Origin: Escherichia phage vB_ecoS_OzMSK
DNA length: 45,053 nt
Strand: one strand, 5' to 3'
Sequence record: PQ659294.1
Shown piece after piece: positions 1,641 through 45,053 of the stretch. A model generated the notes under the pieces. That model was not told the origin of the DNA. It saw only the letters and a list, made by a program, of their open reading frames with translations, and made no database searches. The number at the start of each line of letters is the position of its first letter. The stretch's first letter is position 1. The position numbers were made by a program, and so were the translations under genes.

Positions 1641-1856
1641 ATGCTTATAAAATGCGTTTACGTAAGGCAAGCCAATAGCCACAACCTTTCAGTTGTAAAT
1701 GGCGGGATATACGTAGCTAAGCCAATACCTTGTTTTAATGGCTCATACCACATCAAGATTGATGACAATGAGTACATAGTAAAGACGGTAGGTGAAGCCC
1801 TCATGATAAAGAGCCTAGGTATCATAATGGCTAAATTCGAAATCGTTAGCAAATAG
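1641..1856 (+). CDS. hypothetical protein (71 aa)
   Basis: ORF; stop TAG lies inside the first promoter-like motif copy. Confidence 0.4.
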   Translation: MLIKCVYVRQANSHNLSVVNGGIYVAKPIPCFNGSYHIKIDDNEYIVKTVGEALMIKSLGIIMAKFEIVSK

Positions 1857-1896
1857 CACGAATTGCTAAACAATGGATCGGGTAGTCAGCTATGAT
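1851..1896 (+). promoter_or_regulatory. class-A promoter-like cassette (AAATAGCACGAATTGCTAAA, ~22 nt, TATGAT)
   Basis: Inverted repeat TAGCA-N5-TGCTA followed at conserved spacing by a -10-like hexamer and a conserved leader; same architecture recurs about 15 times. Confidence 0.5.
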
Positions 1897-3998: not shown

Positions 3999-4182
3999 CT
4001 TGTGGGATGTGAAGTTGTCCATTCGCTTAATGGGCCGCTCGTGCAAGAATTGCACTCAAGATTACATCGCGTCAGTTGCCGCAATCAGCGCTGAGGATGC
4101 GGTAGCGAAAGTAAAGAGTATGTCAGGAGCTGCCCCTGATACTCACAAATTCCTGGTAGCTTACGTTCGTGAGCGAAAGTAA
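3985..4182 (+). CDS. hypothetical protein (~65 aa)
   Basis: ORF followed by a strong intrinsic terminator; start 3985 or 3991 uncertain. Confidence 0.35.
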   Translation: MTMSSLWDVKLSIRLMGRSCKNCTQDYIASVAAISAEDAVAKVKSMSGAAPDTHKFLVAYVRERK

Positions 4183-4226
4183 AAAGCGTTATACCCTCGT
4201 TAAGTTTCGTTTCTCTCGTTGTTTTT

Positions 4227-4250
4227 AGCCCTCGCTTGAGGGCTTTTTTT
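4227..4250 (+). terminator. rho-independent terminator (AGCCCTCGCTTGAGGGCT + T7)
   Basis: GC hairpin followed by a T-run. Confidence 0.7.
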
Positions 4251-4270
4251 CGTCTGTAATATGGTATAAT
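4251..4270 (+). promoter_or_regulatory. sigma70-like promoter with extended -10 (TGGTATAAT) ahead of the packaging/head operon
   Basis: TGGTATAAT at 4262..4270 directly after the terminator; AAGGAGG RBS and ATG 4294 follow. Confidence 0.5.
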
Positions 4271-4293
4271 CTGACCTCAACAAAGGAGGATTT

Positions 4294-4800
4294 ATGAGCA
4301 AAGCAGCATTAAAGATTGGTGAGGGAAACTTCAAGGCGCTCTACAACAAGAAGTATGGCGATATTGCTATGGTCGCAATCAACCGTAAGTACACGCCCGA
4401 GGAGGTATTTGACTTTGCAGTGAGATACTTTTCATGGGCTGAGAATGAGGCAATCAAGGCCATTGAGACGGCTGCATTCCAGGGTGTGGTTAGCGAGAGC
4501 CTGGTTCACAAGCCTCGAGTGTTCACCTTAACTGGCCTGGCGCTATTTATGGGTGTCAATATCAATAGATTCGCTCGCTGGCGTACTGAGGCTGGTTACT
4601 CTGACGTGATGGAATTCATTGATAACGTAATTTATGAGCAGAAGTATCAGCTTGGCGTTGCAGGCATCATCAACTCCACAATCGTTGGTAAAGAGTTAGG
4701 GATTGATAAGCCGCAGGAGATTACCATTAGCAACAACTCCACAGCTAACGACGTTGATAGCATGAAGGAAGCGCTGGAGTCTGTGATTAGTAAGTTATAA
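4294..4800 (+). CDS. terminase small subunit (putative)
   Basis: 168-aa ORF immediately upstream of the large terminase; strong RBS AAGGAGG. Confidence 0.55.
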   Translation: MSKAALKIGEGNFKALYNKKYGDIAMVAINRKYTPEEVFDFAVRYFSWAENEAIKAIETAAFQGVVSESLVHKPRVFTLTGLALFMGVNINRFARWRTEAGYSDVMEFIDNVIYEQKYQLGVAGIINSTIVGKELGIDKPQEITISNNSTANDVDSMKEALESVISKL

Positions 4801-4818: not shown

Positions 4819-6384
4819 ATGTCTTTAGTGTGGGAAGAAATGACCATTCAGGAGAAGATGGCGGTTAAGGCTATATCAGAACACAGCTTCGAGGGTTTCC
4901 TTCGGTGCTGGTTTTCAATAACCCAGGGAGAACGATACATCCCTAACTGGCATCACAAGTACTTGTGCAGAATCATTGACGAGATTATCGCAGGAGAGCG
5001 CAAGGATACCATCATTAACATAGCGCCGGGCAGCGGAAAGACGGAAATCGCTTCAATACACTTCCCGGCATACTCGATGGTTAAGCTGAAGAAGGTGAGG
5101 AATCTTAACATCTCATTTGCCGACTCCCTTGTAAAGCGCAACTCGAAACGCGTACGTGACCTTATCAAGTCTCAAGAATTTCAATCACTCTGGCCTTGCA
5201 AGTTTGGCACATGCAAGGATGATGAGCTTCAGGTTCTTGATGAGAGCGGAAAGGTTAGGTTTGAGTCAATATCAAAGGCGGCTGGAGGCCAGATTACTGG
5301 TGCTCGCGGTGGCTACATAACTGAAAATTACAGTGGTGCGGTGTTGTTAGATGATTTCGATAAGCCCGCAGATATGCTTTCTCCGGTTTATCGAGCTAAT
5401 AACCACGTAATGCTCAAGAACACAATTCGATCACGTCGCGCTAGCTCTGTAAAAGGAAAAGCGACACCAATCATTTCGATACAGCAGCGTCTGCACGTCA
5501 ATGACTCAACCTGGTTCATGATGGAAGGTGGGATGGGCATCGATTTTGACTTGATTAAGATACCAGCGCTAGTTACTGAGGATTACATCGACTCGCTCCC
5601 TGACTGGATTAAAGAGCAGTTTGCGGAAGACGTTTTAAGCAGTGAGTACATTGAGAGAGATGGCGTAAAGTACTATAGCTACTTCCCAAAAAAGGAGTCA
5701 GTAAACGACCTGGTTGCGATGTGGGATAGTGACCCGTACACTTTTCTCAGCCAGTATCAACAAGAACCAGTAGCACTTGGTGGCAATCTGATTAACGTAG
5801 ACTGGTTCCAGCGTCTTAGTGATACATTCAGGCATCCAGCCAAGTACGATTATAGATTTATAACTTGCGATACTGCGATGACCACAAAGAGTTATAGTGA
5901 CTTCTCTGTACTTCAGTTGTGGGGATATAAGGATGCTAAGATTTACCTGATAGACCAGCGCAGGGGTAAATGGGAGGCTCCAGAATTAGAGGCTGAATTA
6001 CTTGACTTCGAGAAGAAATCAAGGGCAACCAGTCAGTCAGATGGCATCCTACGAAAAATCATTATCGAGAAGAAAGCCTCTGGTATCGGCTTGATTCAAT
6101 CTGCAGGCAGGGTAATGCGAACTCCGATAGAGCCATACGTACCGGATAGCGACAAGCTGACTCGCGTGATGAGCGCGTTACCACAGATCAAGGCTGGTAA
6201 CGTCGTCCTTCCAGAGTCTGCGCCATGGCTAAATGGATTGCTTACGGAGGTTGCGGCTTTTACGGCAGATGACTCGCATAAGCACGACGACCAAATTGAC
6301 TGTCTAACAATGGCAGTAAACCTTGTTCTCAATATCGCGGATGATCCTAAGGCACGACTAATGCGCATAGCGGGAATTAAATAG
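4819..6384 (+). CDS. terminase large subunit
   Basis: 521 aa; Walker A-like NIAPGSGKT near the N-terminus; C-terminal nuclease-like acidic residues; position before portal. Confidence 0.85.
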   Translation: MSLVWEEMTIQEKMAVKAISEHSFEGFLRCWFSITQGERYIPNWHHKYLCRIIDEIIAGERKDTIINIAPGSGKTEIASIHFPAYSMVKLKKVRNLNISFADSLVKRNSKRVRDLIKSQEFQSLWPCKFGTCKDDELQVLDESGKVRFESISKAAGGQITGARGGYITENYSGAVLLDDFDKPADMLSPVYRANNHVMLKNTIRSRRASSVKGKATPIISIQQRLHVNDSTWFMMEGGMGIDFDLIKIPALVTEDYIDSLPDWIKEQFAEDVLSSEYIERDGVKYYSYFPKKESVNDLVAMWDSDPYTFLSQYQQEPVALGGNLINVDWFQRLSDTFRHPAKYDYRFITCDTAMTTKSYSDFSVLQLWGYKDAKIYLIDQRRGKWEAPELEAELLDFEKKSRATSQSDGILRKIIIEKKASGIGLIQSAGRVMRTPIEPYVPDSDKLTRVMSALPQIKAGNVVLPESAPWLNGLLTEVAAFTADDSHKHDDQIDCLTMAVNLVLNIADDPKARLMRIAGIK

Positions 6385-6432
6385 CCGTGATAAACTAAGC
6401 CCCTATATGGGGATTTTCTATTGGAGAAAAAC

Positions 6433-7701
6433 ATGGTTAAGACAGACAGCTACGCCAATATCTTTCTAGGCGGCAGTGATGGTAGTGAGATTTACGGGAG
6501 TTTGCAGAGCCAATCCCCTACAATTCTGGCTTCGCTTTATGCGGACAATGCGCTGGTGCGTCGAATCATCGACACAATCCCGGAAACAGCACTAGCGGCA
6601 GGATTCCACATTGATGGAATTGATGATGAGCCTGCATTCTGGTCGCGCTGGGACTATCTAGAACTAACAAAGCACATCAATGAAGCCTGGTCGTGGGCTA
6701 GATTGTTCGGTGGGGCAGCAATTGTTGCTATCGTTAAGGACAATAGAGCTCTAACAAGCCCGGTCAGAGAAGGGGCGGAACTTGAAACCGTTCGCGTTTA
6801 CGACCGTACTCAAGTAAAAGTACAAACTCGCGAAGAGAATCCCCGCAACGCACGTTTTGGCAAGCCACTAACCTATCGCGTCACCACTAATGAGAGCGAT
6901 ATGTTCTATGATGTGCACTACAGCCGAATTCACATCATTGACGGAGAGCGAATCCCTAACGTAATGCGTCGGCAGAATGATGGCTGGGGCCGCAGCGTTC
7001 TTTCCAGTGACATTCTTGACTCAATCAAGGATTACACCAACTGCGAAAGACTCGCCACCCAACTACTGAGACGAAAGCAGCAAGCAGTGTGGAAAGCCAA
7101 AGGTCTGGCTGAGTTGTGTGATGATAGCGAGGGATTTGGTGCCGCAAGGTTGCGCCTAGCACAGGTTGATAACAATAGCGGCGTTGGTCAGGCGATTGGC
7201 ATTGACGCGGAATCTGAAGAGTATAGCATCCTAAACTCTGATATTGGCGGGATTGATGCGTTCCTGGATAAGAAGTTTGACAGAATCGTTGCACTGAGCG
7301 GCATTCATGAGATTATCCTGAAGAATAAGAACGTTGGCGGCGTATCATCAAGTCAGAACACCGCATTGGAGACATTCCATAAACTAGTCGATCGCAAGCG
7401 TAACGCTGAACTACTGCCGATTCTCGGGTTCCTGATTCCGTTCATTTCAGACGAGCAAGAATGGTCAGTGGAGTTTAATCCCCTAGCGCAGGAATCAAGT
7501 AAGGATAAGGCCGAGATTCTTGAGAAGAACGTAAACAGCATTGCGACACTAATTGCAGCTGGCGCTATGGACATTGACGAAGCTAGGGATACATTGCGCA
7601 CAATCGCTCCAGAGGTTAAGATTAGTGACGGTTCAGTAGAAACAGAGGTGACAATTAGTGAAGCCAGTAATGACCCGCTGGAAGTACCCACAGACAATTG
7701 A
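6433..7701 (+). CDS. portal protein
   Basis: ~420 aa ORF directly after terminase; ATG 6433 with GGAG RBS (track start 6421 is TTG). Confidence 0.8.
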   Translation: MVKTDSYANIFLGGSDGSEIYGSLQSQSPTILASLYADNALVRRIIDTIPETALAAGFHIDGIDDEPAFWSRWDYLELTKHINEAWSWARLFGGAAIVAIVKDNRALTSPVREGAELETVRVYDRTQVKVQTREENPRNARFGKPLTYRVTTNESDMFYDVHYSRIHIIDGERIPNVMRRQNDGWGRSVLSSDILDSIKDYTNCERLATQLLRRKQQAVWKAKGLAELCDDSEGFGAARLRLAQVDNNSGVGQAIGIDAESEEYSILNSDIGGIDAFLDKKFDRIVALSGIHEIILKNKNVGGVSSSQNTALETFHKLVDRKRNAELLPILGFLIPFISDEQEWSVEFNPLAQESSKDKAEILEKNVNSIATLIAAGAMDIDEARDTLRTIAPEVKISDGSVETEVTISEASNDPLEVPTDN

Positions 7702-20323: not shown

Positions 20324-20375
20324 TATTTAGTGTAGAATGGCACAAATGATCAAAACAAACATGAGGCTTTGTGAT

Positions 20376-25036: not shown

Positions 25037-25082
25037 ATAGTATCGCATCCTTGCGATCAGTGTTTAGCAATTCGTGCTATTT
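25037..25082 (-). promoter_or_regulatory. class-A promoter-like cassette inside the 3' end of the methylase gene, ahead of the lipoprotein gene
   Basis: Minus-strand AAATAGCACGAATTGCTAAA then TACTAT at the conserved spacing; the motif encodes the methylase C-terminus INSTNC and its stop. Confidence 0.5.
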
Positions 25083-25756
25083 ATTCTTTCTTTCGCAATT
25101 TTAAAGTAATCCGAATCAAGCTCTATACCTATAAAGCTCCTTCTTGTATTGACGCATGCCACGCCAGTGGTTCCGCTACCCATGCAGTTATCAAGAACTG
25201 TATCCCCTTCGTTTGTATATGTATTAATCAGGTATTCCATTAACGCTACGGGCTTTTGGGTAGGGTGTGCGCCTGTTTCTGTTGCGAATTCAAGAATTGT
25301 GGTTGGGTATCCAGTAACTGTTTGTCTTGTTGTCTTACTGCACTCATTGTAATTTCCGCGATTGGTTCTTGAAACCATCACATCCGTTTGCCTTGTCCCT
25401 TGCGGGTTGTATGTTGGCTGATTTGCATAAAACACCGCTATATCTTCAGTGTTTATAAGTGGTTGCTTTTTCGCATTTAGATGTCCAGTAGGTTTTGATT
25501 TTTTCCAAATCCAGCAATATTTAAATTCCTTTAGATTGCTTGTTATCAGCGCGGACGTGAAAGGCTGTGCGCAAGTAAGAACAACCGCCCCACGGCTTAT
25601 GCGGCGGTATTGACGCCAAAGTAACCGCAAATCGATGATGACATCCCATCTGTTTCTCGTTGTTCCATACGGCAAATCACATAAAATAAGGTCTATACTC
25701 TTGTCTGGGATATCATTCATCATCTCTAAGCAGTCGCCATTCATTAATTTAATCAT
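25064..25756 (-). CDS. dam: DNA N6-adenine methyltransferase (Dam-like)
   Basis: Motif IV DLPYG (ILCDLPYGT) precedes motif I-like [10 protein letters not shown], as in N6-adenine methyltransferases; 230 aa. Confidence 0.8.
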
Positions 25757-25790: not shown

Positions 25791-25835
25791 ATAATACAGC
25801 CGCCGCTGCGGAATGTCTTTAGCTATTCGTGCTAT
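25791..25835 (-). promoter_or_regulatory. class-A promoter-like cassette upstream of the methylase operon
   Basis: Minus-strand AATAGCACGAATAGCTAAA then TATTATTACC and a conserved leader. Confidence 0.5.
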
Positions 25836-25839
25836 TGTA

Positions 25840-26495: not shown

Positions 26496-27461
26496 ATGAG
26501 CTTTAAAGTTTTTACGAGAAATGAGCTAAGCAACGAGGCTTACCACTCTGAGACTGATCACATCTCAGGATCCTCACTTGTCGAGATTATTCAGGGTTCA
26601 CCAGCCAAGTGGAAATTCAAGCAGCGCAATAGCGATAGCAAGGCTCTTAAGTTTGGCACCCTAAGCCACACGATGATTTTAGAGCAAGATGTATTTGATA
26701 AAGAATACCTTCGAGCTACAGACCTTGACGCGATTGAAGGATTAATTACAAGCCAGGCTGGACTGTCGGCAGCACTTAAAAAAAATGGCGTGGCTGGCAC
26801 GTCCGGGAAGGGCTGTAGCGAGCTCGTGGAGATGATGTACAGCTCTGGCGAGGATTGGCCTGTTAAATGGCTAATTGAGCAGCAGGAGAGCGCTCAAGCG
26901 CTTGTGGAGGGTAAGGAGCTAGTTAGTGCCGCTGACTACGATAAAGTTGTGGCTATGCGTGAGGTTCTTTGCAATATACCGGCATATAATGCAATCGTGA
27001 ATAGTGAGACAGCACAAAAAGAGCTATCAATATTCGGTGAGATTCTTGGTGTCGGCGTGAAGATTCGAATTGACCACGTTGACGTTGTTGATGGGGTGGT
27101 AATGATCAACGATTATAAAACTACCGCAGACGCAAGCCCGGAAGGGTTTGGTAAATCGGCATTCTCGCACGGATATCTTGCAAAAATGGCATTGCAGCGA
27201 GATCTGTTTGTGAAGGCATTTAACGAGAAGCGCAAGGTTGTTGTGGGATTACTGGCACAGGAGAAGGTAGAGCCATACTTGCCAATGCGATACACGCTAA
27301 CAGATGAACAGCTACGAATCGGTAGATTGCAGTATCTTGAGGCGCTTGCCACTTACAAGAAGTGCAAGGAGCTTGATATCTGGCCTGGCTACTCAAATGG
27401 CATTACAGAGCAAGAGCTATTGGTTCCTGAGTGGGCATTAAAACAATACAAAGAAATCTAA
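26496..27461 (+). CDS. PD-(D/E)XK-type exonuclease (putative recombination exonuclease)
   Basis: 321 aa; candidate nuclease motif D..INDYK (RIDHVDVVDGVVMINDYKT); immediately upstream of Erf-like and SSB genes. Confidence 0.5.
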   Translation: MSFKVFTRNELSNEAYHSETDHISGSSLVEIIQGSPAKWKFKQRNSDSKALKFGTLSHTMILEQDVFDKEYLRATDLDAIEGLITSQAGLSAALKKNGVAGTSGKGCSELVEMMYSSGEDWPVKWLIEQQESAQALVEGKELVSAADYDKVVAMREVLCNIPAYNAIVNSETAQKELSIFGEILGVGVKIRIDHVDVVDGVVMINDYKTTADASPEGFGKSAFSHGYLAKMALQRDLFVKAFNEKRKVVVGLLAQEKVEPYLPMRYTLTDEQLRIGRLQYLEALATYKKCKELDIWPGYSNGITEQELLVPEWALKQYKEI

Positions 27462-27505
27462 ATAGCACTAATTGCTAAAAACAAAATTGAAAGATTGGGT
27501 ATGAT
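27460..27505 (+). promoter_or_regulatory. class-A promoter-like cassette (AAATAGCACTAATTGCTAAA, then TATGAT)
   Basis: Motif overlaps the upstream stop codon; -10-like hexamer at the conserved spacing. Confidence 0.5.
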
Positions 27506-31318: not shown

Positions 31319-31338
31319 AAAATAGCACGAATTGCTAA
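31319..31338 (+). promoter_or_regulatory. class-A motif copy in plus orientation, 21 nt upstream of the minus-strand tail fibre start
   Basis: AAATAGCACGAATTGCTAAG; the only copy oriented against the adjacent downstream gene. Confidence 0.4.
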
Positions 31339-31363
31339 GTTGGATTGTAGCATCTTTCAGGCA

Positions 31364-32337: not shown

Positions 32338-32383
32338 ACTATACACAATGTATAGCGCCACTGTTTATCAATTCGTGCTATTT
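32338..32383 (-). promoter_or_regulatory. class-A promoter-like cassette upstream of primase
   Basis: Minus-strand AAATAGCACGAATTGATAAA then TATAGT; motif overlaps the stop of the upstream gene. Confidence 0.5.
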
Positions 32384-32860
32384 CCCTTGCTCTTTAGCTT
32401 TTCGCGCTGCCTCGTTAGCGGCCTTAATCTTGCGCCATGATCGACACTCTGTCTTGGTGGCTAATTCAGCCTCAGTAACAACACGCAGCATGTGACGCTT
32501 TTTGCAACGAAGAGTTAGCGGCTTCCCGTTACCGTCGAATTGCAAATCTGGTCGGCAGAATGTGGCGCGAAAACCTTCTCCATTTCGCTTGTAGTAGTTG
32601 TGCGACAGCTGGGCGCCACGTGCCGATATCATGCCGCGCTTAAACCATTGTTCTACAGCCTGTGGTGTTACCTTTAACTGCTTTGCGATATTCGCCTTTG
32701 TGCCGAAGAAATCAAGAACTATCTCCAGGCGTGCCCGTAACCCTGCTCTTACTTCATCCTTTAAAACGTAGTAACCTGAAGGTCGTTTACGTTGCTTTTT
32801 GTCTTCAGTGCGGATAGTTCCGTTGTTGCCGTTAATGGTTCTCTTGTCGACTGTATTCAT
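32378..32860 (-). CDS. putative DNA-binding protein (160 aa, basic, HTH-like segment)
   Basis: Highly basic; segment IAKQLKVTPQAVEQWFKRG resembles a helix-turn-helix. Confidence 0.4.
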   Translation of the reverse strand: MNTVDKRTINGNNGTIRTEDKKQRKRPSGYYVLKDEVRAGLRARLEIVLDFFGTKANIAKQLKVTPQAVEQWFKRGMISARGAQLSHNYYKRNGEGFRATFCRPDLQFDGNGKPLTLRCKKRHMLRVVTEAELATKTECRSWRKIKAANEAARKAKEQGK

Positions 32861-32961: not shown

Positions 32962-34956
32962 ATGTTGCCTATCGAGAAGCTGGTTGCAAACTTCGATAAA
33001 GAAAGAATCAAGCAGATTCAGAAAGATTACCAGTTTGGCGAGATAACCCCTTACGAATTCCAGTGCGTTACATTTGACGTAATTGGGAAGGCTATTGGCA
33101 AGTACGAAGCGCCATTTATCGCAGACCTTTCCGTATCGGCTGGTAAGACAATCATTCTTGCTATGATTGGAAAGCGAATGGAGCAGCTTGGTCTTCCTTA
33201 TATGGTTCTCTCTCGCCAGTCAGAGATAATCAGCCAGAACTCAGAAGAGCTTCGTAATTTCGGGATCCGTAACAGCGTATATTGCGCTGGCCTTAACGTT
33301 AAATCAGTTTACTACCCAACCATAGTTGCTAGCGAAGGAACTGCGGCTAATGGCTTATTTAAGGGGCTTGGTGACTATGTTCCTGCCGTTATAGCTATAG
33401 ATGAATGTCACATGCTTGATACCATAGATATTGTGGAAGCCGAAGAGAATGAAGAAACATTTGAGCAAATGAGCACAAAGAAGGGCGAGATGGTTTTTAA
33501 GGATGGCGTTAATACTGGATTGCTTGGTACTGGTCGTGCGCAGTACACGCTAATAATCACTGAGATGAAGCGTCGCTGCCGTGAAAAATACGGGCGGGAG
33601 CTTCGTATATTCGGCCTTACTGGTAGCCCTTATCGAAACAATGACCATATCGTCGTCAGCAATCCAAACATCCGTGGGTTCTGGCGAAAAGCTGTGATTC
33701 ATGTTCCAACAAATTACCTTGTTGATTTGGGATTCGTGGTTCCTACTGTTTATGGCGAGGTTGGCGATTTAGGTTATGACCTTAGCGAGTTTGTTCCAGA
33801 CGGTAGTGATGGCGTGAAAGACTTTAGCAGAAAAGAAATGGATGCAATGGTCGCAAAGATTCACGACAACCAAACCATGACACAAAAGATAATGCAGTTT
33901 GTCGTCAAAATACTGGAGACTCGCAACGCCGCATTGGTCACCTGCGCCGGAAAACTCCATTGCAGCGAAGCGGCTTCCGCACTGCCTGACGGATACCCTT
34001 ACGCTATTATCACCGATTCTACCGGAGAGAGGAAGCGCAGAGAGATTCTTGCAGATTGCCAGACTGGAAAGTACAAGATTATCTTTCAGATTGGATGTCT
34101 AACCACGGGTGTAAACCAACCGCTGTGGGATACTAGCGTCATACTACGCAAGATTGGCAGTCTAACCTTAATGATTCAGCTTCTTGGTCGTGGCATGCGA
34201 AAACTAAAAAAGGCGCACATAGATGCTGGGTTCAAGAAGGAGGACCACTTGGTATTAGACTTTGCCGGAGCGCTTGATGACATGGCAGAGCTTTACTTTG
34301 ACCCGATAATTGAAGAGATTCAGGCTGAAAAGTTTAAAACATCAAGGAGGAGTGGTGATGAGGTTCGCCAGTGTCCGCAGTGTGGATATGATAACTCGCC
34401 ATTTGCTCGACGCTGTAGCAATAAGATTAATGGCGTTAGATGCGATCACTTTTTCCAGTTCACAACATGTGAGGATATTACCGACCAACAAACAAAGGCG
34501 GTAATCAAGAAAGGTTGTGGAACTAAAAATGACATAGCAGCAAAAGTTTGTCGTGAATGCGGAGAAATGCTTAAAGACCCAAACGCTAACCTGACTGGAA
34601 AGATGTATCGTCGCGGAGACTATTTGCGTGTTTATGACTTCCAGGTTGGATTAAGCAAAAATAAAACTGGTATAGTAGTTAAGTATAATATCATGGCGCA
34701 CAACGGAGAGAGGTTTAACGCGTGGGAGTTCTTTAACCCAGAATCAGACCATAGGGTTTGTAGTGTGCTTTGGAAAAACTTTTGCCTTGCTCACATTGAA
34801 AATCGCGCTGAAGCAGCACGGATTGGTAAAATTCGTAACGCAAAAATGATTATGATGAATGTAGATAAATTCCGTGCTCCAGTGCAAGTTACACACAGGA
34901 AGAACGGAAAGGGGAAGGATGTGATCGCATACAAGAATTTTGGAGAATTGAAATGA
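32962..34956 (+). CDS. SF2 helicase (DEAD/DEAH-like) with C-terminal Cys-rich zinc-ribbon region
   Basis: Walker A SVSAGKT, Walker B-like IDECHML, paired CxxC motifs (CPQCG, CRECG). Confidence 0.75.
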   Translation: MLPIEKLVANFDKERIKQIQKDYQFGEITPYEFQCVTFDVIGKAIGKYEAPFIADLSVSAGKTIILAMIGKRMEQLGLPYMVLSRQSEIISQNSEELRNFGIRNSVYCAGLNVKSVYYPTIVASEGTAANGLFKGLGDYVPAVIAIDECHMLDTIDIVEAEENEETFEQMSTKKGEMVFKDGVNTGLLGTGRAQYTLIITEMKRRCREKYGRELRIFGLTGSPYRNNDHIVVSNPNIRGFWRKAVIHVPTNYLVDLGFVVPTVYGEVGDLGYDLSEFVPDGSDGVKDFSRKEMDAMVAKIHDNQTMTQKIMQFVVKILETRNAALVTCAGKLHCSEAASALPDGYPYAIITDSTGERKRREILADCQTGKYKIIFQIGCLTTGVNQPLWDTSVILRKIGSLTLMIQLLGRGMRKLKKAHIDAGFKKEDHLVLDFAGALDDMAELYFDPIIEEIQAEKFKTSRRSGDEVRQCPQCGYDNSPFARRCSNKINGVRCDHFFQFTTCEDITDQQTKAVIKKGCGTKNDIAAKVCRECGEMLKDPNANLTGKMYRRGDYLRVYDFQVGLSKNKTGIVVKYNIMAHNGERFNAWEFFNPESDHRVCSVLWKNFCLAHIENRAEAARIGKIRNAKMIMMNVDKFRAPVQVTHRKNGKGKDVIAYKNFGELK

Positions 34957-35372
34957 ATATTACAGACAAAGTTGATTACATTGAGTTTTACCCGGGCCCG
35001 GTTAAGTCATGTCCTAAAGAGGATGACGAACAAATCTTTTGTTCTGATTGGGTTAAGTATAACTACCCGGATATGGTATTTTTCCACTGCGTGAATGAGG
35101 GTAAGAAAACCATTGGTCAAGCAAGAAAGGACCAGGCTAAAGGATTGCTTAAAGGGGTTTCGGACTGCTTATTCCTTATACCTGAATCACTGCGAGGCAA
35201 ATACCCATTTGGCGCTATAGAGCTAAAGAGAGCAGGTAAAACGCAAGCTAGCCCAGTTAGCGATGAGCAGAAGTCATTCCTAAAAAGCGTAAGAGAATCA
35301 GGTGGCTTCTCCGCAGTAGCCTATGGCAGAGGTGGCTTTCTTGCAGCATTCGCAGAGATGATTCGAAAATAG
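34953..35372 (+). CDS. VRR-NUC domain nuclease (PD-(D/E)XK fold)
   Basis: 139 aa; motif DCLFLIPE...GAIELKRAGK matches the D..E.K signature; ATGA overlap with helicase. Confidence 0.55.
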   Translation: MNITDKVDYIEFYPGPVKSCPKEDDEQIFCSDWVKYNYPDMVFFHCVNEGKKTIGQARKDQAKGLLKGVSDCLFLIPESLRGKYPFGAIELKRAGKTQASPVSDEQKSFLKSVRESGGFSAVAYGRGGFLAAFAEMIRK

Positions 35373-35412
35373 CACGAATTGCTAAAGACGAATCGGTGAG
35401 GTGGTGTATTAT
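35367..35412 (+). promoter_or_regulatory. class-A promoter-like cassette (first of a tandem pair)
   Basis: AAATAGCACGAATTGCTAAA then TATTAT; downstream ~165 nt has no plausible ORF. Confidence 0.5.
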
Positions 35413-35576
35413 CAACTCATCGAAACGAAACACTCACAAAAAAGGTGAGAAGTTGCAAACGTAGGCCGGAGCAACGAAAGACGTTTCAAAATATGATGTG
35501 ACAAACCCATGAGAAAGGAAGTTGCAAACGTAGGCCGGAGCAACGAAAATCACATCATAATAAATTATAACTTAGT
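35413..35576 (+). ncRNA. candidate small non-coding RNA or iteron region with two copies of a 29-bp element
   Basis: AGTTGCAAACGTAGGCCGGAGCAACGAAA at 35451..35479 and 35520..35548; each is an inverted repeat GTTGC..GCAAC around GGCCGG; no ORF longer than 8 codons. Confidence 0.3.
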
Positions 35577-35622
35577 AAATAGCACGAATTGCTAAAGAGG
35601 AATCGGTGAGGTGGTGTATTAT
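35577..35622 (+). promoter_or_regulatory. class-A promoter-like cassette (second of the tandem pair)
   Basis: Near-identical to 35367..35412 including GAATCGGTGAGGTGGTGTATTATCA. Confidence 0.5.
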
Positions 35623-36928: not shown

Positions 36929-38059
36929 ATGGCAGTAGCAAAGATTACCAACGAGCAGCTTATCGAAGAGTTGAAAAATGGCATGACTAACAAGGCGATT
37001 GCAGAGAAGTATGGCATGAACATTCGCAACGTCGAGCTTCGTCGCAGCAAGTTGGCTAAGAGTGGAGTTGGGCATGGTAATGAGGGTATCAATAAGCTAG
37101 TACCGGATGGATATTTAGTCAAGGGCACTTCAACCATGATTGATGCGGAAGGGAATGAGAAGCTGCGCTGGGTTAAGACGAGCGTTGATAATGAGCGCCT
37201 TGAGGTTTTAATGGAGCAAGCTCGAGAAGCGTTTTGCTCTGAGTTGCCAAAGGCAGATTCGGTCAACCACTCAGGTAATGAGGTCAATTCTGAATTAATG
37301 ACTCTTTACCCGATTTTCGATATCCATATCGGCATGATGGCTCATCGACATGAGTCTGGTGAAAATTATGACACGAACACAGCAGAGAAATTGATGGGGT
37401 CATATTTTGACCATGCAATTTCTGTATCACCAGCCTCGGAGAAAGCCGTGATTTTAGTTGGCGGCGACTTCCTTCACTCTGATGGACTGGAGGCTGTAAC
37501 CCCAGCAAGCGGACACTGCCTTGATCAAGATAGTCGATATGCCAAGTTAGTTTATGTAGCAATTCGATCAATTCGCGGTGCGGTAGAGAAGATGCTTAAG
37601 AAACACAAGGAGGTCGAGATTCAAATCATAGAGGGCAATCATGATCAAAGTGGTATGATTTGGCTTCGCGCTGCAATGGCTGCATTTTATGAAAGAGAGA
37701 GTCGAGTGTTTGTTGATACCAGTCCGGCAATCATGCACAAGACGCGATTTGGCTCAACATTACTTGGTTACACGCACGGTCACACGATGAAGAAAGCCGA
37801 GGGTCGACTAGCAGCAATGGCGACCGACTACCGCAAAGACTTTGGTGAATGTGAGTTTGTTTACTGCCACTCCGGCCATTTCCATCATGCAACTGTTACA
37901 GAGTGCACTCTTGGGATTGATGAAGTCCACCCTGCACTTGCTAGCAAGGATGCATATGCGGCACGGGGAGGGTGGAGATCATATCGACAAGCGGCTGCAA
38001 TTATTTACCACAAGAATTTTGGCGAGGTTGGTCGACACATTTATCGCCCAGGTATGTAA
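36929..38059 (+). CDS. metallophosphoesterase (calcineurin/Mre11-SbcD-like motifs) with N-terminal HTH-like domain
   Basis: Motifs FDIHIG (D-x-H), GGDFLHSDG (GD), EGNHDQ (GNHD), YTHGHT (GH); N-terminal MTNKAIAEKYGMNIRNVELRR resembles a sigma70-region-4/LuxR-type HTH. Confidence 0.55.
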   Translation: MAVAKITNEQLIEELKNGMTNKAIAEKYGMNIRNVELRRSKLAKSGVGHGNEGINKLVPDGYLVKGTSTMIDAEGNEKLRWVKTSVDNERLEVLMEQAREAFCSELPKADSVNHSGNEVNSELMTLYPIFDIHIGMMAHRHESGENYDTNTAEKLMGSYFDHAISVSPASEKAVILVGGDFLHSDGLEAVTPASGHCLDQDSRYAKLVYVAIRSIRGAVEKMLKKHKEVEIQIIEGNHDQSGMIWLRAAMAAFYERESRVFVDTSPAIMHKTRFGSTLLGYTHGHTMKKAEGRLAAMATDYRKDFGECEFVYCHSGHFHHATVTECTLGIDEVHPALASKDAYAARGGWRSYRQAAAIIYHKNFGEVGRHIYRPGM

Positions 38060-38133: not shown

Positions 38134-38607
38134 ATGATTTACGTATTTGATATCGATGGAACTATAGCTAATAATGAGCATAGAAGTAACCTCTTGCCAT
38201 TCAGCGACCTTCACTTGACTTCAAGTTGGAAGGATTACAATAAAGCCTGTTCTGGAGACTCACCAATAATTCCAATGATAAACATGATGAATACGTTATC
38301 CGACTCATCGCCAGTTTACATCATGACCTCAAGAAGTGATGAAGTTGAATGGAGGACTCTTGAGTGGCTTAAGGATAATGAGGTTGAGTATGATTCGATA
38401 TACATGAGAAGTCGATATGACAACCGAAAAGATTACAAAATAAAAGAGGAATGGCTTAATGAAATCAGTGGTGGCGATAAAAGCAATGTGATTATTTTTG
38501 AAGATAACCCACAAGTAATTAAGCACCTAAGAAGTTGCGGATACACCGTTATGGCTGTATGTGAATATGAAGACCTACCTAAAGACTGCGAATCTCACGG
38601 AGAATGA
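38134..38607 (+). CDS. HAD-family phosphatase (putative nucleotidase)
   Basis: N-terminal HAD motif I VFDIDGTIA; 157 aa; adjacent to the dNMP kinase gene. Confidence 0.5.
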   Translation: MIYVFDIDGTIANNEHRSNLLPFSDLHLTSSWKDYNKACSGDSPIIPMINMMNTLSDSSPVYIMTSRSDEVEWRTLEWLKDNEVEYDSIYMRSRYDNRKDYKIKEEWLNEISGGDKSNVIIFEDNPQVIKHLRSCGYTVMAVCEYEDLPKDCESHGE

Positions 38608-39161
38608 AAATGACTAAATTATTTATCCTTAATGGCCCAGCTGGAGTTGGCAAGGACACTATAGCGGATATGATGGTTGAGACTGGTGTCGCAAAAGAAA
38701 AGGTATCATTCAAGTCACCAATATTTAGAGTTGCAAAAGGAATGCTATCAAGCGATGAATTTGATGAATTCATCAAGAATTACGACAATAGAGACTATAA
38801 GGAATCACCTCATAGATTTCTTGTCGGTATGACAGTTCGTGAATTTATGATTTGGATTAGCGAGTCTGTAATGAAGCCAGCCTTTGGTGATGATGTTTTC
38901 GGTAAAAGGCTAGCGCAGTCACTTGGTGATGGCTGCTACATTTGCGCTGACGGTGGATTTGCTAGCGAGATTAAGCCACTGATCGACGCTGGTGTTGAGG
39001 TCACGTTAATCAGATTGCATAGGGCAGGGTACACATTTGATGGCGATAGTCGCTCATACATTCACGGGGTGTGCGCAAGAGAAATTGATGTTCGTGTTGT
39101 TGATTGTGATATTAATGGAACATCAGCATTGGTAAGGCACGTAATAAATAGCACAAATTGA
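38604..39161 (+). CDS. deoxynucleoside monophosphate kinase (P-loop kinase, putative)
   Basis: N-terminal P-loop ILNGPAGVGKDT; size and motif typical of phage dNMP kinases; C-terminus INSTN is encoded by a class-A motif copy. Confidence 0.55.
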   Translation: MKMTKLFILNGPAGVGKDTIADMMVETGVAKEKVSFKSPIFRVAKGMLSSDEFDEFIKNYDNRDYKESPHRFLVGMTVREFMIWISESVMKPAFGDDVFGKRLAQSLGDGCYICADGGFASEIKPLIDAGVEVTLIRLHRAGYTFDGDSRSYIHGVCAREIDVRVVDCDINGTSALVRHVINSTN

Positions 39162-39166
39162 TAAAG
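39147..39166 (+). promoter_or_regulatory. class-A motif copy (AAATAGCACAAATTGATAAA) overlapping the kinase stop
   Basis: Motif variant followed by the conserved leader ..ACATCGAAACGAG.. Confidence 0.4.
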
Positions 39167-39232
39167 ATAATAATAAAAACTTAGTTATCATTAACACATC
39201 GAAACGAGATTAACTAAACGAGGAAACACAAA

Positions 39233-39409
39233 ATGACTAAAATGATTTATTGCACCAAAAACAACTCCAAGACTCTGCCATTTACAGTTAACCAGCCGTA
39301 CAACGCAGAGTACCAGGGCGATGGATATTACAAGATTTATGGAGACGATATGACGCACATCTTAGCGCCGATTGATGGTTCGTTGGTTGAATTTATTATC
39401 GCTGACTAG
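39233..39409 (+). CDS. hypothetical small protein (58 aa)
   Basis: ATG with GAGG RBS after a class-A cassette, followed by a strong terminator. Confidence 0.4.
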   Translation: MTKMIYCTKNNSKTLPFTVNQPYNAEYQGDGYYKIYGDDMTHILAPIDGSLVEFIIAD

Positions 39410-39755: not shown

Positions 39756-40241
39756 ATGAAGCAGAAGCTGCTAATTGGCGCGGCTACGGCTGCGGCGATA
39801 TACATCGCAGCGCCGCTTGTTGAGCTCGTTGAGGGTGTGGAGAATAATCCTTACATGGACATTGCCGGAATCCCTACGGTATGTTCCGGTATTACTGGAC
39901 CTGATGTTGTTTGGGGTAAGACTTACAGCAATAGGGAGTGCCGGAACCTACTGGAGAAGCACATCCAGATTCATGCTAAGTATGTTCAGGATGCGGTTAC
40001 TTACCCAATTGCACAGCAGACAAGGGCAGCGTTAATTAGCTTTAGCTACAACGTTGGTGGTCATGCCATGAAGAACTCAACGGCAGTTCGACTTATCAAC
40101 CAGGGTAAAGTGGAGCAGGGTTGCAAGGCTCTCGGAATGTGGAATAAGGCTACCGTTAATGGAAAAAAGGTTGTCGTTAAGGGTTTGGTGAATCGCAGGA
40201 ATGAGGAGATTAAGTTATGCTTAAGCGGATTGCAGCGTTAG
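39756..40241 (+). CDS. endolysin, T4-lysozyme-like (GH24) with probable N-terminal SAR signal-anchor
   Basis: Catalytic-triad spacing E-x8-D-x5-T (ELVEGVENNPYMDIAGIPTVCSGIT); Ala/Gly-rich weakly hydrophobic N-terminus LLIGAATAAAIYIAAPLV. Confidence 0.75.
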   Translation: MKQKLLIGAATAAAIYIAAPLVELVEGVENNPYMDIAGIPTVCSGITGPDVVWGKTYSNRECRNLLEKHIQIHAKYVQDAVTYPIAQQTRAALISFSYNVGGHAMKNSTAVRLINQGKVEQGCKALGMWNKATVNGKKVVVKGLVNRRNEEIKLCLSGLQR

Positions 40242-40606
40242 TAATGTGCGTAGCTTTATCTGGATGTTCAGCAACATCTGCTCTGACCGGCTTGATTGGC
40301 AGTAAGCCAGAGATTAGCGCTCAAGCTGGTGCAGAGAACAATAAGATTGGGGTTGGGTTAACTAATAAGGTTGACTCCAGTAACTCAAGTGATGCTTCCG
40401 TTAAGGATTCTAGTGTTGGCTCTCTGGATAGCTCTAGCGGCAAAAAGACCTCTGACAACTCGATTAAGGCATCCACAATAACTGCTGAAAAGATTGAGAT
40501 CACCAATAACGACTCTTCCGCTCTTCCGTGGATTGGAACAGGGGCTATGGGGTTGCTGGTTTTTATTCTCCTGGCAGTAATCTTAAGACGTAAAAAAGCC
40601 CCTTGA
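40217..40606 (+). CDS. unimolecular spanin (T1 gp11-type)
   Basis: N-terminal lipoprotein signal with lipobox LSGC, Ser/Asn-rich periplasmic region, C-terminal transmembrane helix AMGLLVFILLAVIL plus RRKK; overlaps the endolysin 3' end. Confidence 0.75.
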   Translation: MLKRIAALVMCVALSGCSATSALTGLIGSKPEISAQAGAENNKIGVGLTNKVDSSNSSDASVKDSSVGSLDSSSGKKTSDNSIKASTITAEKIEITNNDSSALPWIGTGAMGLLVFILLAVILRRKKAP

Positions 40607-40626
40607 TAGGGGCTGTATATTTTTAT
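40592..40626. terminator. terminator hairpin (GCCCCTTGATAGGGGC) between the convergent lysis and right-arm transcripts
   Basis: GC hairpin with A-run upstream and T-rich downstream. Confidence 0.5.
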
Positions 40627-40638
40627 CTACAACTAACT

Positions 40639-40848
40639 TTAAAGTGGGATTAACTGCATTGATTCCACTCTAATTTCAATCCCGCGCACAAGTCCTTCCA
40701 GGCTTGTGGTGATGAATGACTCCGATACGTATCCACCATCAGAGATGGTAGCGATAATGTCACCATCACCCTGCTCTTTAATATCCACGGTCAGGAGGTT
40801 GGCTTTTGCTTTTGCAAGTACTGCCATCAGTTTTTCTACTGTGCTCAT
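40639..40848 (-). CDS. hypothetical protein (69 aa)
   Basis: ATG 40848 with AGGAG RBS (track ORF extends to 40896). Confidence 0.4.
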   Translation of the reverse strand: MSTVEKLMAVLAKAKANLLTVDIKEQGDGDIIATISDGGYVSESFITTSLEGLVRGIEIRVESMQLIPL

Positions 40849-40931: not shown

Positions 40932-40955
40932 CTAGGGGCTTTTAACAAAAAGGGC
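40932..40955 (-). terminator. terminator-like hairpin (AAAAGCCCCTAGAGGGCTTTT)
   Basis: GC hairpin with flanking T-run on the minus strand. Confidence 0.5.
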
Positions 40956-40958
40956 TAT

Positions 40959-41294
40959 TTAATAGAATAATTCGTCGTCAGTCATTTTTCCTATGTTCAT
41001 CATCTCTTTTATGTACTTGCTCTCATACCCGCTAAGTGACTCAAAGTTGAAGCTAAATGGCCTATTTAAACTCCCCTTGCTAACAAACTCCCCACACTTA
41101 CCATCAATGTATCCAGCAGTTAACATCTTTGCGCAAAACTCCTTTGAAGCAGCGCTGCAAAACTCTCTATGCGATAACCCTGCCGCCTTGCTAAATCTCT
41201 TAGAATCCTTATGTTGGTAGATGAATCGCGCCAAATGCTGGCGCGTGAAATAGGAATACGACTCGCAGAACTTAAATATATCGAGCAGGAACAT
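40959..41294 (-). CDS. hypothetical protein (111 aa)
   Basis: ORF with several Cys and basic residues. Confidence 0.45.
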   Translation of the reverse strand: MFLLDIFKFCESYSYFTRQHLARFIYQHKDSKRFSKAAGLSHREFCSAASKEFCAKMLTAGYIDGKCGEFVSKGSLNRPFSFNFESLSGYESKYIKEMMNIGKMTDDELFY

Positions 41295-44109: not shown

Positions 44110-44155
44110 AATATACAGGAAAAGCCCCTGAAGGGTTTTAGCAATTCGTGCTATT
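44110..44155 (-). promoter_or_regulatory. class-A promoter-like cassette with an embedded hairpin
   Basis: Minus-strand AATAGCACGAATTGCTAAA, then CCCTTCAGGGG hairpin, then TATATT. Confidence 0.45.
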
Positions 44156-44299
44156 GCGTGCCTTTTCTATCGCCTTAAGCATAATTTCGTGACTTTCCAG
44201 TAAGTCCTCTCGGAACCAGTCCCCGCAAGGCCAACCCTTTCCGCTGTATGCGCTAATAACTTCCAGATCGAAGTAGTTTATCTCAGATGGTAATAGCAT
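44138..44299 (-). CDS. possible small protein (53 aa) ending ..NSTNC inside the motif
   Basis: ORF below the track cutoff; C-terminal NSTNC plus stop encoded by the class-A motif. Confidence 0.3.
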   Translation of the reverse strand: MLLPSEINYFDLEVISAYSGKGWPCGDWFREDLLESHEIMLKAIEKARNSTNC

Positions 44300-44949: not shown

Positions 44950-44995
44950 ACTATAGCCTCGCCACCAGCACATGTCTTTAGCAAAAAGTGCTATT
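44950..44995 (-). promoter_or_regulatory. degenerate class-A cassette (AATAGCACTTTTTGCTAAA, then TATAGT)
   Basis: Motif variant with -10-like hexamer at the conserved spacing. Confidence 0.4.
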
Positions 44996-45053
44996 CGTTA
45001 GATTTATGTATTGTTGCATATATTGCAATGATTCACATGATTATTGCACATAC

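Follow-up and report, generated by a model that had tools for sequence, protein, structure and literature searches.

The DNA considered here is a stretch of 45,053 nucleotides from Escherichia phage vB_ecoS_OzMSK (PQ659294.1), which was analyzed over its full length and is called the window below. The same sequence, in a permuted register, is on record as Escherichia phage Msk (MW057918.1, 45,053 bp), a T1-like siphovirus belonging to the Drexlerviridae. A 20-bp element, or box, is repeated in the window, and its copies contain or overlap the stop codons of the genes in front of them, so that unrelated proteins end with the translation of one and the same DNA signal. This had been put forward in a sequence-only reading of the window as a visible case of a regulatory element that constrains coding sequence. 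The observation is confirmed and its first reading is supported, and both extend to the whole phage family; the constraint is one-way, the DNA motif being conserved and the peptide being a passenger. In addition, the box looks like a consensus marbox, the type of site bound by the host regulators MarA, SoxS and Rob, in the geometry of a class II promoter, and it may be the general promoter element of T1-like phages.

The consensus 20-mer, AAATAGCACGAATTGCTAAA, is present in the window in six perfect copies, and 11 copies have at most three mismatches, against an expectation of 0.02; none of 100 shuffled windows reached 11 matches. Ten of the 11 copies are oriented toward the downstream gene. 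All eight of these class-A copies that have a same-strand gene directly upstream contain or overlap its stop codon, as had been claimed, and the remaining three (25837-, 35577+ and 31320+) have no such gene. How a gene is closed follows from the phase in which it enters the motif. In the first phase, the motif reads AAA TAG; in the second, it reads AAT AGC ACG AAT TGC TAA, i.e., NSTNC followed by a stop; the third phase, ATA GCA CGA ATT GCT AAA, is open.

Three proteins had been named as carrying such tails, and all three tails are borne out. The proteins are mutually unrelated: an N6_N4_Mtase, a deoxynucleoside monophosphate (dNMP) kinase of phrog_139 and a member of phrog_4548. The focal motif copy, AAATAGCACAAATTGATAAA, is of the marbox type with two changes and does overlap the end of the dNMP kinase gene, but it is located at 39146-39165 (+), one base off the interval 39147-39166 that had been reported for it. 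The kinase (38604-39161, +; 185 residues; phrog_139 over residues 1-167, E 1.6e-41) ends in ...VINSTN, and the last five codons and the stop of its gene are within the motif (...gta ata aat agc aca aat TGA). The TGA (39159-39161) is found at motif positions 14-16 because the focal copy has TTGATA rather than TTGCTA. The gene for the N6/N4 DNA methylase (25064-25756, -; 230 residues, ...RINSTNC; Pfam N6_N4_Mtase), a cassette between two motif copies, is closed by the TAA (25066-25064, motif positions 17-19) of a perfect copy at 25063-25082 (-). Similarly, the TAA of the copy at 44137-44156 (-) closes an open reading frame (ORF) of 53 residues (44138-44299; ...ARNSTNC; phrog_4548).

The TAG within the motif was likewise expected to serve other genes, and this is the case for three of them. 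The perfect copy at 1851-1870 (+) closes ORF 1641-1856 with its TAG at 1854-1856, the perfect copy at 35367-35386 (+) closes the VRR-NUC gene (34953-35372), and the copy at 32364-32383 (-), a TTGATA variant, closes the gene for a Cro-like helix-turn-helix (HTH) regulator (32378-32860, -). Two more genes stop on a TAA that borrows the first two A's of the motif, i.e., a 47-codon ORF (TAA 2896-2898; perfect copy at 2897-2916, +) and a RecE-like gene (26496-27461; TAA 27459-27461; copy at 27460-27479, +). No corrected gene ends that miss the motif emerged, and independent curated annotations of relatives agree with those given here. Curated ends at the same motif positions are those of the deoxynucleotide kinase (5962-6534; motif at 6529), Orf66 (4142-4360; ...NSTNC) and the resolvase of T1, of gp15 of ACG-M12 (40241-40795) and of CDS0054 of PCEc3 (37027-37581).

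When the orthologous proteins of relatives are aligned, the tails of all three named proteins co-vary with the presence of the motif. Among the relatives, ACG-M12, PCEc3, A110b and a Veterinaerplatzvirus genome (loci L001-L004) are collinear with Msk. In two orthologues of the dNMP kinase (L056 and L124), the protein ends in ...EIIRDHLK at the TAG of the motif (CTT AAA TAG), in a third (L031), the A-run of the motif is shorter by one A and the protein ends in ...EIIRDHLNSTNC (CTC AAT AGC ...), and the orthologues without the motif have unrelated ends. Orthologues of the 53-residue ORF end in ...KARNSTNC, in ...KAAKK at the TAG in the motif or, in L004 without the motif, in ...KAKNINGEHK. The same switching of tails is found among the orthologues of the VRR-NUC nuclease and of the HTH regulator. 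No close orthologue of the Msk methylase was found. Relatives that are 58% identical and have the motif end in ...DRINSTNC in Phc and in ...NRINSTNS in IMM-001, two other Drexlerviridae. The methylase homologues of a Xanthomonas phage, Felixounavirus and Jerseyvirus, which are without the motif, end in ...RIHTALEDWLMTA, ...RIL and ...RISEAYKTKAP, respectively, and diverge directly past a conserved ...RI. The tails lie outside the conserved domains, since N6_N4_Mtase extends no further than residue 223 of 230 and phrog_139 spans residues 1-167 of 185. Because the tails switch with the motif and its phase, and because the domain ends before the tail, the tail is dictated by the DNA element, and the peptide as such is not required. 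Conservation of the tail at the protein level independent of the DNA, which would mark a functional tag, was not observed; the tail comes and goes with the motif and the phase.

How often each ending occurs was counted over the T1-like phages. In approximately 62% of 292 distinct motif contexts, the stop of the upstream gene is within or overlaps the motif, and this stop starts at position 4 in 106 contexts, at position 17 in 26, at position 14 in five and at position 0 or 1 in 32. Clustering of the upstream proteins gave 91 families running into the motif. Forty-nine of these families stop on the TAG (...K), 25 have an NSTNC-type tail, and 25 stop at positions 0-1, on TAA or in one case (T1) on TGA; at least 11 families have both ...K and ...NSTNC members. 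Read-through of the motif by upstream ORFs is almost absent. NSTNC is a minority outcome, and the TAG stop is the commonest one. Counted by entry phase, 62 families use phase 0, 25 use phase 1 and approximately 20 use phase 2. The preference of approximately 2.5-fold for phase 0, which gives the shortest tail, over phase 1 suggests weak selection against extra residues.

In IMG/VR, a scan for the exact pattern gave more than 120 stretches with the motif, nearly all of them on contigs of 41-55 kb, and BLAST of phage records found the promoter in more than 800 phages of Escherichia, Klebsiella, Shigella, Salmonella, Citrobacter and Enterobacter. In T1-like phages, 10-14 near-perfect consensus boxes are present per 45-50 kb.

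An alignment of 325 distinct copies from T1-like phages, on which the consensus tests described below were also performed, reveals what follows the box. Motif positions 2-20 are nearly invariant, with the exception of position 10, which is G, T or A. After a spacer of 20 nucleotides, a TATAGT- or TATAAT-like hexamer is found at a fixed offset: TANNNT starts at motif position 41 in 68% of the copies and at neighboring offsets in at most 7%, and a G at -14 is present in 71%. Downstream of this -10 hexamer is a conserved leader, CCATCGAAAC, and the downstream genes begin 25-35 nucleotides further on and have Shine-Dalgarno sequences. The predicted start of transcription is near the A of CATCGAAAC, approximately 7 nucleotides past the TATAGT hexamer (~39198 in the focal copy). 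In most copies, CATCGAAACGA (motif positions 53-63, e.g., 39197-39207) is kept at or after this predicted start. With a leader conserved at the start, many phage mRNAs would have a common 5' end. In the case of the focal copy, the hexamer is TATCAT (39186-39191, +), 20 nucleotides past the motif at motif positions 41-46, the leader at the predicted start is ATCGAAACGA (39198-39207, +), and the ATG of the next gene is at 39233. The copy at 1851 has TATGAT at 1891-1896 and a downstream gene that probably begins at GTG 1927, and the copy at 32364-32383, which precedes the primase gene, has TATAGT at the canonical distance. No -35 hexamer is present 17 bp from the -10 hexamer, where positions 18-23 read AAA(A/C)(C/A)N. 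The possibility that the box is itself an ordinary -35 element, by means of its TTGCTA, was rejected, as this sequence is 22 bp from the -10 hexamer.

The region between the box and the leader is prone to fold. Positions 19-52 have a mean folding energy of -9.2 kcal/mol vs. -3.9 kcal/mol for shuffled sequences, 76% of the copies are at or below -5 kcal/mol, and a stem of at least 6 bp enclosing part of the -10 hexamer is found in 22% of the copies vs. less than 1% of the shuffles. G-rich and C-rich arms flank the -10 hexamer at motif positions 29-52 in approximately 300 copies (e.g., 1881-1902, GGGTAgtcagctatgatTACCC), and the resulting stem-loops are of variable register, with the -10 hexamer partly in the loop or in the stem. 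Because of this variable register, RNAalifold yielded no single consensus stem-loop. Stem-loops around the -10 hexamer would exist only in read-through transcripts or in single-stranded DNA, and attenuation, RNA processing and promoter melting are possible roles.

Motif positions 3-20, ATAGCACGAATTGCTAAA, fit the marbox consensus AYnGCACnnWnnRYYAAAY (PMC3709825) at all specified bases, and 284 of the 325 copies do so. The final Y of that consensus is met in only approximately 30% of the copies, and micF also has an A there. The core GCAnnWWnTGnnAAA derived by chromatin immunoprecipitation (PMC12052159) is matched without mismatch by 291 copies. In the window, a strict marbox pattern has 10 matches vs. 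0.10 expected. A second class of the motif, ATAGCACTTTTTGCTAAA, has TTTTT in place of GAATT and thus differs only at degenerate marbox positions; it is identical to the marbox of the mar operon at 15 of 19 positions.

The placement of the box also corresponds to that of known sites. In class II promoters, a forward marbox overlaps the -35 element and is centered at -36 to -55 (PMC12052159). Such a site is expected 18-19 bp from the -10 hexamer, with its center near -41, next to a -35 hexamer that is weak or missing at 17 ± 1 bp. On micF, RamA is positioned near -41, and the layout is CACN-7N-AAA in the forward orientation (PMC12052159, PMC8811837). The phage box is forward as well, its AAA being closer to the -10 hexamer than its GCAC, and has the CACN-7N-AAA layout of micF. 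A distance of 38 nucleotides, measured between the first bases of marbox and -10 hexamer, is found in the phage and in micF and nfo of E. coli MG1655; in micF, it separates the marbox ACAGCACTGAATGTCAAAA from TAGAAT. In fumC of the same strain, this distance is approximately 39 nucleotides and the gap approximately 19 nucleotides.

A protein of the phage that could read a marbox did not turn up. A tblastn search of the window and approximately 1.2 Mb of related loci with approximate MarA and SoxS queries gave nothing below E = 0.5, and Pfam analysis of 30 non-structural phage proteins revealed no AraC or HTH_18 domain. The exact 18-mer has 13 matches in bacterial genomes vs. approximately 17 by chance (596 billion bases, both strands, 4^18); a count so close to chance implies that the exact box is not a host element. 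Given the perfect consensus, the class II geometry and the failure to find an AraC-family protein of the phage, activation by host Rob, MarA or SoxS is the most economical interpretation, and class II activation by one of them in vivo is modestly favored. Since the consensus is perfect, binding of the box by MarA, SoxS or Rob in vitro is likely. A literature search with the motif string yielded nothing, with an earlier description possible in the Rtp or T1 genome papers, and a search for marbox together with bacteriophage yielded nothing on T1-like phages, those same genome papers being outside its scope. The marbox identity is the new point, whilst the overlap of a promoter signal with gene ends has a precedent in the cassettes of T4-type phages discussed below.

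Several considerations weigh against this interpretation. The position of the marbox near -41 depends on a start site that was itself deduced from the sequence. Marbox-like sequences are common, with 17,730 loose matches in E. coli (PMC12052159), and the counts presented here are over related phages and are not phylogenetically independent. Furthermore, the conservation of the box exceeds the specificity of MarA, SoxS and Rob: position 5, the middle base of the TAG, is an n in the marbox, yet it is an A in 321 of the 325 copies, and positions 11-14 are approximately 95% conserved. The box also holds a 5-bp inverted repeat, TAGCA-N5-TGCTA. This excess conservation and the inverted repeat suggest that a second reader, e.g., a Cro-like HTH protein, or concerted evolution may be involved.

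Taken to its conclusion, the suggestion of a second reader would make the box the operator of a dimeric HTH protein of the phage, i.e., the regulator encoded at 32378-32860 (P22_Cro-like, phrog_2856), acting as an activator or as a repressor, with the likeness to a marbox being secondary. This is unlikely, but it is the alternative that survives best. It draws on the inverted repeat, which is completed by the nearly invariant n positions 5 and 14, on the conservation beyond the needs of a marbox, and on the regulator itself, which is conserved across the family and whose own stop codon is inside a copy of the box. However, the conservation is asymmetric over 19 positions and not restricted to the arms, and mismatches in the arms are uncompensated, as position 16 varies in 27 of the 325 copies and its partner, position 6, does not. 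Moreover, all specified positions of two independent marbox definitions are met, with the exact spacing of micF and nfo, and boxes are found ahead of the genes at both ends of the genome, presumably the earliest ones, which have to be transcribed before any phage protein is made.

Somewhat less probable still is that host RNA polymerase reads the box without any activator, as a displaced -35 element or as an UP-like element. TTGCTA does resemble TTGACA, and a good -10 hexamer combined with the frequent G at -14 makes basal activity likely. Nevertheless, the 22 bp between TTGCTA and the -10 hexamer are far from the canonical 17 ± 1, the box is unlike the A/T tract of an UP element, and the invariant GCAC, at least 30 bp upstream of the -10 hexamer, would be left unexplained. 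It is very improbable that the box acts primarily as an RNA hairpin (UAGCA-loop-UGCUA) that is placed at stop codons for the processing or termination of read-through transcripts. The box does fold, at -3.7 kcal/mol, and the strong stem-loops described above are next to it in the spacer and -10 region; yet, the hairpin of the box is weak, compensatory changes in its arms are lacking, and the fixed distance to the -10 hexamer and the orientation to downstream genes favor a promoter at the DNA level. Finally, the idea that selection acts on the protein to maintain NSTNC as a functional tag, e.g., for degradation or targeting, can practically be discarded: although an identical pentapeptide closes approximately 25 unrelated families, orthologues swap ...K, ...NSTNC and other ends, even by a single-base shift, invariance is no lower at third codon positions than at the first two, copies without an incoming ORF conserve these bases just as well, and the tails lie outside the conserved domains.

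Two arrangements known from other phages were considered as well. The MotA box of phage T4, TGCTTtA, is centered near -30, approximately 12 bp from the -10 hexamer, and requires MotA and AsiA. A middle promoter of this type was rejected, as TTGCTAAA ends 20 bp from the -10 hexamer instead of 11-13 bp; the MotA family was not found among the Pfam hits of the 30 non-structural proteins. An analogy to Mor and C of phage Mu was rejected because of the spacing and the absence of these proteins.

The account that probably explains the observations as a whole is that of a marbox-type promoter box in a compacted genome, with built-in stops and with the tails as by-products. The 20-bp box would be the upstream half of the standard promoter of the Drexlerviridae, the full promoter consisting of the box, a 20-nucleotide spacer that often contains a stem-loop, a TATAGT-like -10 hexamer and a conserved ATCGAAAC leader. 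The genes would reach the box because the genome is tightly packed, the gene ahead of each promoter running up to it; compaction combined with built-in stops is the simplest cause. An incoming ORF would then be closed as ...K in the TAG phase or as ...NSTNC in the TAA phase, an ORF in the third phase would have to stop at a TAA that borrows the first two A's of the box, and the tails would be by-products of a constraint at the DNA level. The box would be located where a class II activator sits, centered near -41, and replace the -35 element. Host MarA, SoxS or Rob would bind it and recruit sigma-70 RNA polymerase. Rob is constitutively abundant in the host and would, for that reason, be the likeliest activator when infection starts. 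In addition, repeated boxes may bracket exchangeable cassettes of a promoter plus a gene and thereby fuse new genes to a box.

Such cassettes are suggested by the methylase site in the leftward operon. Two boxes bracket the methylase gene in Msk, whereas L004 has a single promoter directly before the lipoprotein gene. At the same site, ACG-M12 and PCEc3 have two boxes around an unrelated gene that ends in ...RWLNSTNS or ...RWLNSTNC, and A110b has yet another gene, which ends in ...FLANSTNC. Homology breakpoints with the four collinear relatives coincide with seven of the 14 boxes, where 0.8 would be expected at random positions. This is offset by the gene ends without a box, 15 of 42 of which also coincide with breakpoints, so there is no specific enrichment at boxes. 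The notion of the box as a recombination hot spot was dropped, as breakpoints at boxes are not above those at ordinary gene ends, and recombination at the box is a proposal.

A full promoter of the Drexlerviridae type, i.e., box, spacer, -10 hexamer and leader, is also present in the unrelated myovirus rV5 (DQ832317.1, 107464-107530; L125 1501-1567), with 84% identity over 67 nucleotides, and in the rV5-like phage Mangalyan. Its TAG closes ORF166, homologues of which are found in T1-like phages (51% identity, L021). This looks like the transfer of a cassette between phage families. In its broadest form, the proposal would be that phages of the T1 family have wired essentially all of their promoters to the Mar/Sox/Rob system of the host, that the box serves as both stop carrier and cassette seam, and that one cassette has reached an rV5-like myovirus; this is tentative and plausible without being favored.

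The phage box shares features with two known systems. Like the class II promoters of micF, nfo and fumC, which respond to MarA, SoxS, Rob (and RamA), it is an asymmetric forward marbox of 19-20 bp that overlaps or replaces the -35 element. A probable marbox of nfo, with two mismatches, even overlaps the TAA of yeiH (...GTC ATC GCA TAA; L129 259-277), as in the phage. However, host marboxes are degenerate single sites of a stress regulon, whereas the phage has 10-14 near-perfect copies that apparently act as general promoters. Also unlike host marboxes, the phage boxes come with a stem-loop and a conserved leader, and their activation by a host factor is a deduction.

The second system is formed by the promoter-early stem-loop (PeSL) cassettes of T4-type phages (Arbiol et al., 2010, PMC2839356; PMC4122927). 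PeSLs and the phage box are both promoter motifs that recur between genes, start at the stop codons of the genes in front of them and bracket variable genes, and both have a stem-loop over the -10 hexamer or between it and the upstream element, which is a -35 element in PeSLs and a marbox here. PeSLs differ from the phage box, which has no -35 element at 17 bp, in that their -35 element is a canonical sigma-70 one and their upstream region is rich in A/T. Recombination at PeSLs and the formation of mini-circles were demonstrated experimentally, whereas breakpoints at the phage box are not enriched over gene ends, and the fixed-phase peptide tail is a feature of the phage box only. Within the same phage group, the "phage-specific promoters" described for IMM-001, ACG-M12 and CEB_EC3a (PMC6301781, Fig. 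S2) are probably the same repeated promoter. In that paper, the consensus appears as an image only, and neither the marbox nor overlaps with stop codons nor shared protein tails were found to be mentioned. The 2021 description of phage MSK does not discuss promoters.

Additional copies in the window deserve mention. The copy CAATAGCACGAATAGCTAAA at 25818-25837 (-) is part of the first promoter of the leftward unit and has no gene upstream. The perfect copy at 35577-35596 (+) forms a tandem second promoter, separated from the one at 35367 by a non-coding insert of 145 bp (35432-35576). In this insert, which has no match in any other locus compared, a stretch of 31 bp occurs twice as an exact direct repeat (35449-35479 and 35518-35548), and a GTTGC...GCAAC hairpin is present in both units. 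The copy at 31320-31339 (+), situated where the primase gene ends and the tail-fiber gene starts, is antisense to both of these neighbors (both -) and has no -10 hexamer at the canonical distance. It is kept at this locus in every relative examined, T1 included (L126 34900-34919). Its reverse complement, TGCTATTTT, resembles an extended -10 element and is located approximately 25 nucleotides before the start codon of the tail-fiber gene. This copy might act as a marbox for repression or as a promoter of late genes. The variant-class copy GAATAGCACTTTTTGCTAAA at 44977-44996 (-) still fits the marbox consensus, and a degenerate variant, AAATAGCCCTTTTTGTTAAA, is found at 40941-40960 (-), the first bases of which overlap with the TAA of gene 40959-41294. 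An extra match to the strict marbox pattern, ATGGCACAAATGATCAAA at 20337-20354 (+), coincides with the start codon of a tail protein of 1141 residues and has no -10 hexamer at the canonical distance; it is probably due to chance.

A few sequence records with the box carry unexpected labels. Three exact copies are present in NZ_VSMK01000220.1 (46,669 bp; L135, L136), a contig of a Nitratidesulfovibrio liaohensis assembly that is as long as a T1-like phage genome and is probably a contaminating coliphage. The host labels of PP134917.1 and MG065688.1, i.e., Pseudomonas phage PsgS01F and Campylobacter phage A110b, look doubtful, since the match of PsgS01F equals that of PCEc3 in record length, identity and bit score and A110b is a close relative of Msk. 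Aeromonas phage LAh2, considered as a T1-like phage of a non-enteric host, was rejected as it is T7-like and uninformative.

The overlap of box and genes provides a clean, family-wide case of a regulatory DNA signal that writes the last residues of many unrelated proteins. It is also of use in annotation, as the box predicts gene ends in T1-like phages and ...NSTNC tails do not indicate homology. The tails are of moderate interest as an example of overlapping signals, and the marbox identity of the box is more surprising. How T1-like phages direct the RNA polymerase of their host is poorly described, and the current annotations of T1, ACG-M12 and Msk leave these promoters unmarked. If the boxes are indeed sites for Rob, MarA or SoxS, a frequent group of E. 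coli and Klebsiella phages would have its gene expression coupled to the host regulon that also governs antibiotic tolerance. Expression of the phage genes would in that case be dependent on, or adjusted by, Rob in response to bile and fatty acids, MarA in response to antibiotics and salicylate, and SoxS in response to oxidative stress, which would be relevant to phage therapy in combination with antibiotics and to the contamination of fermentations by T1-like phages.

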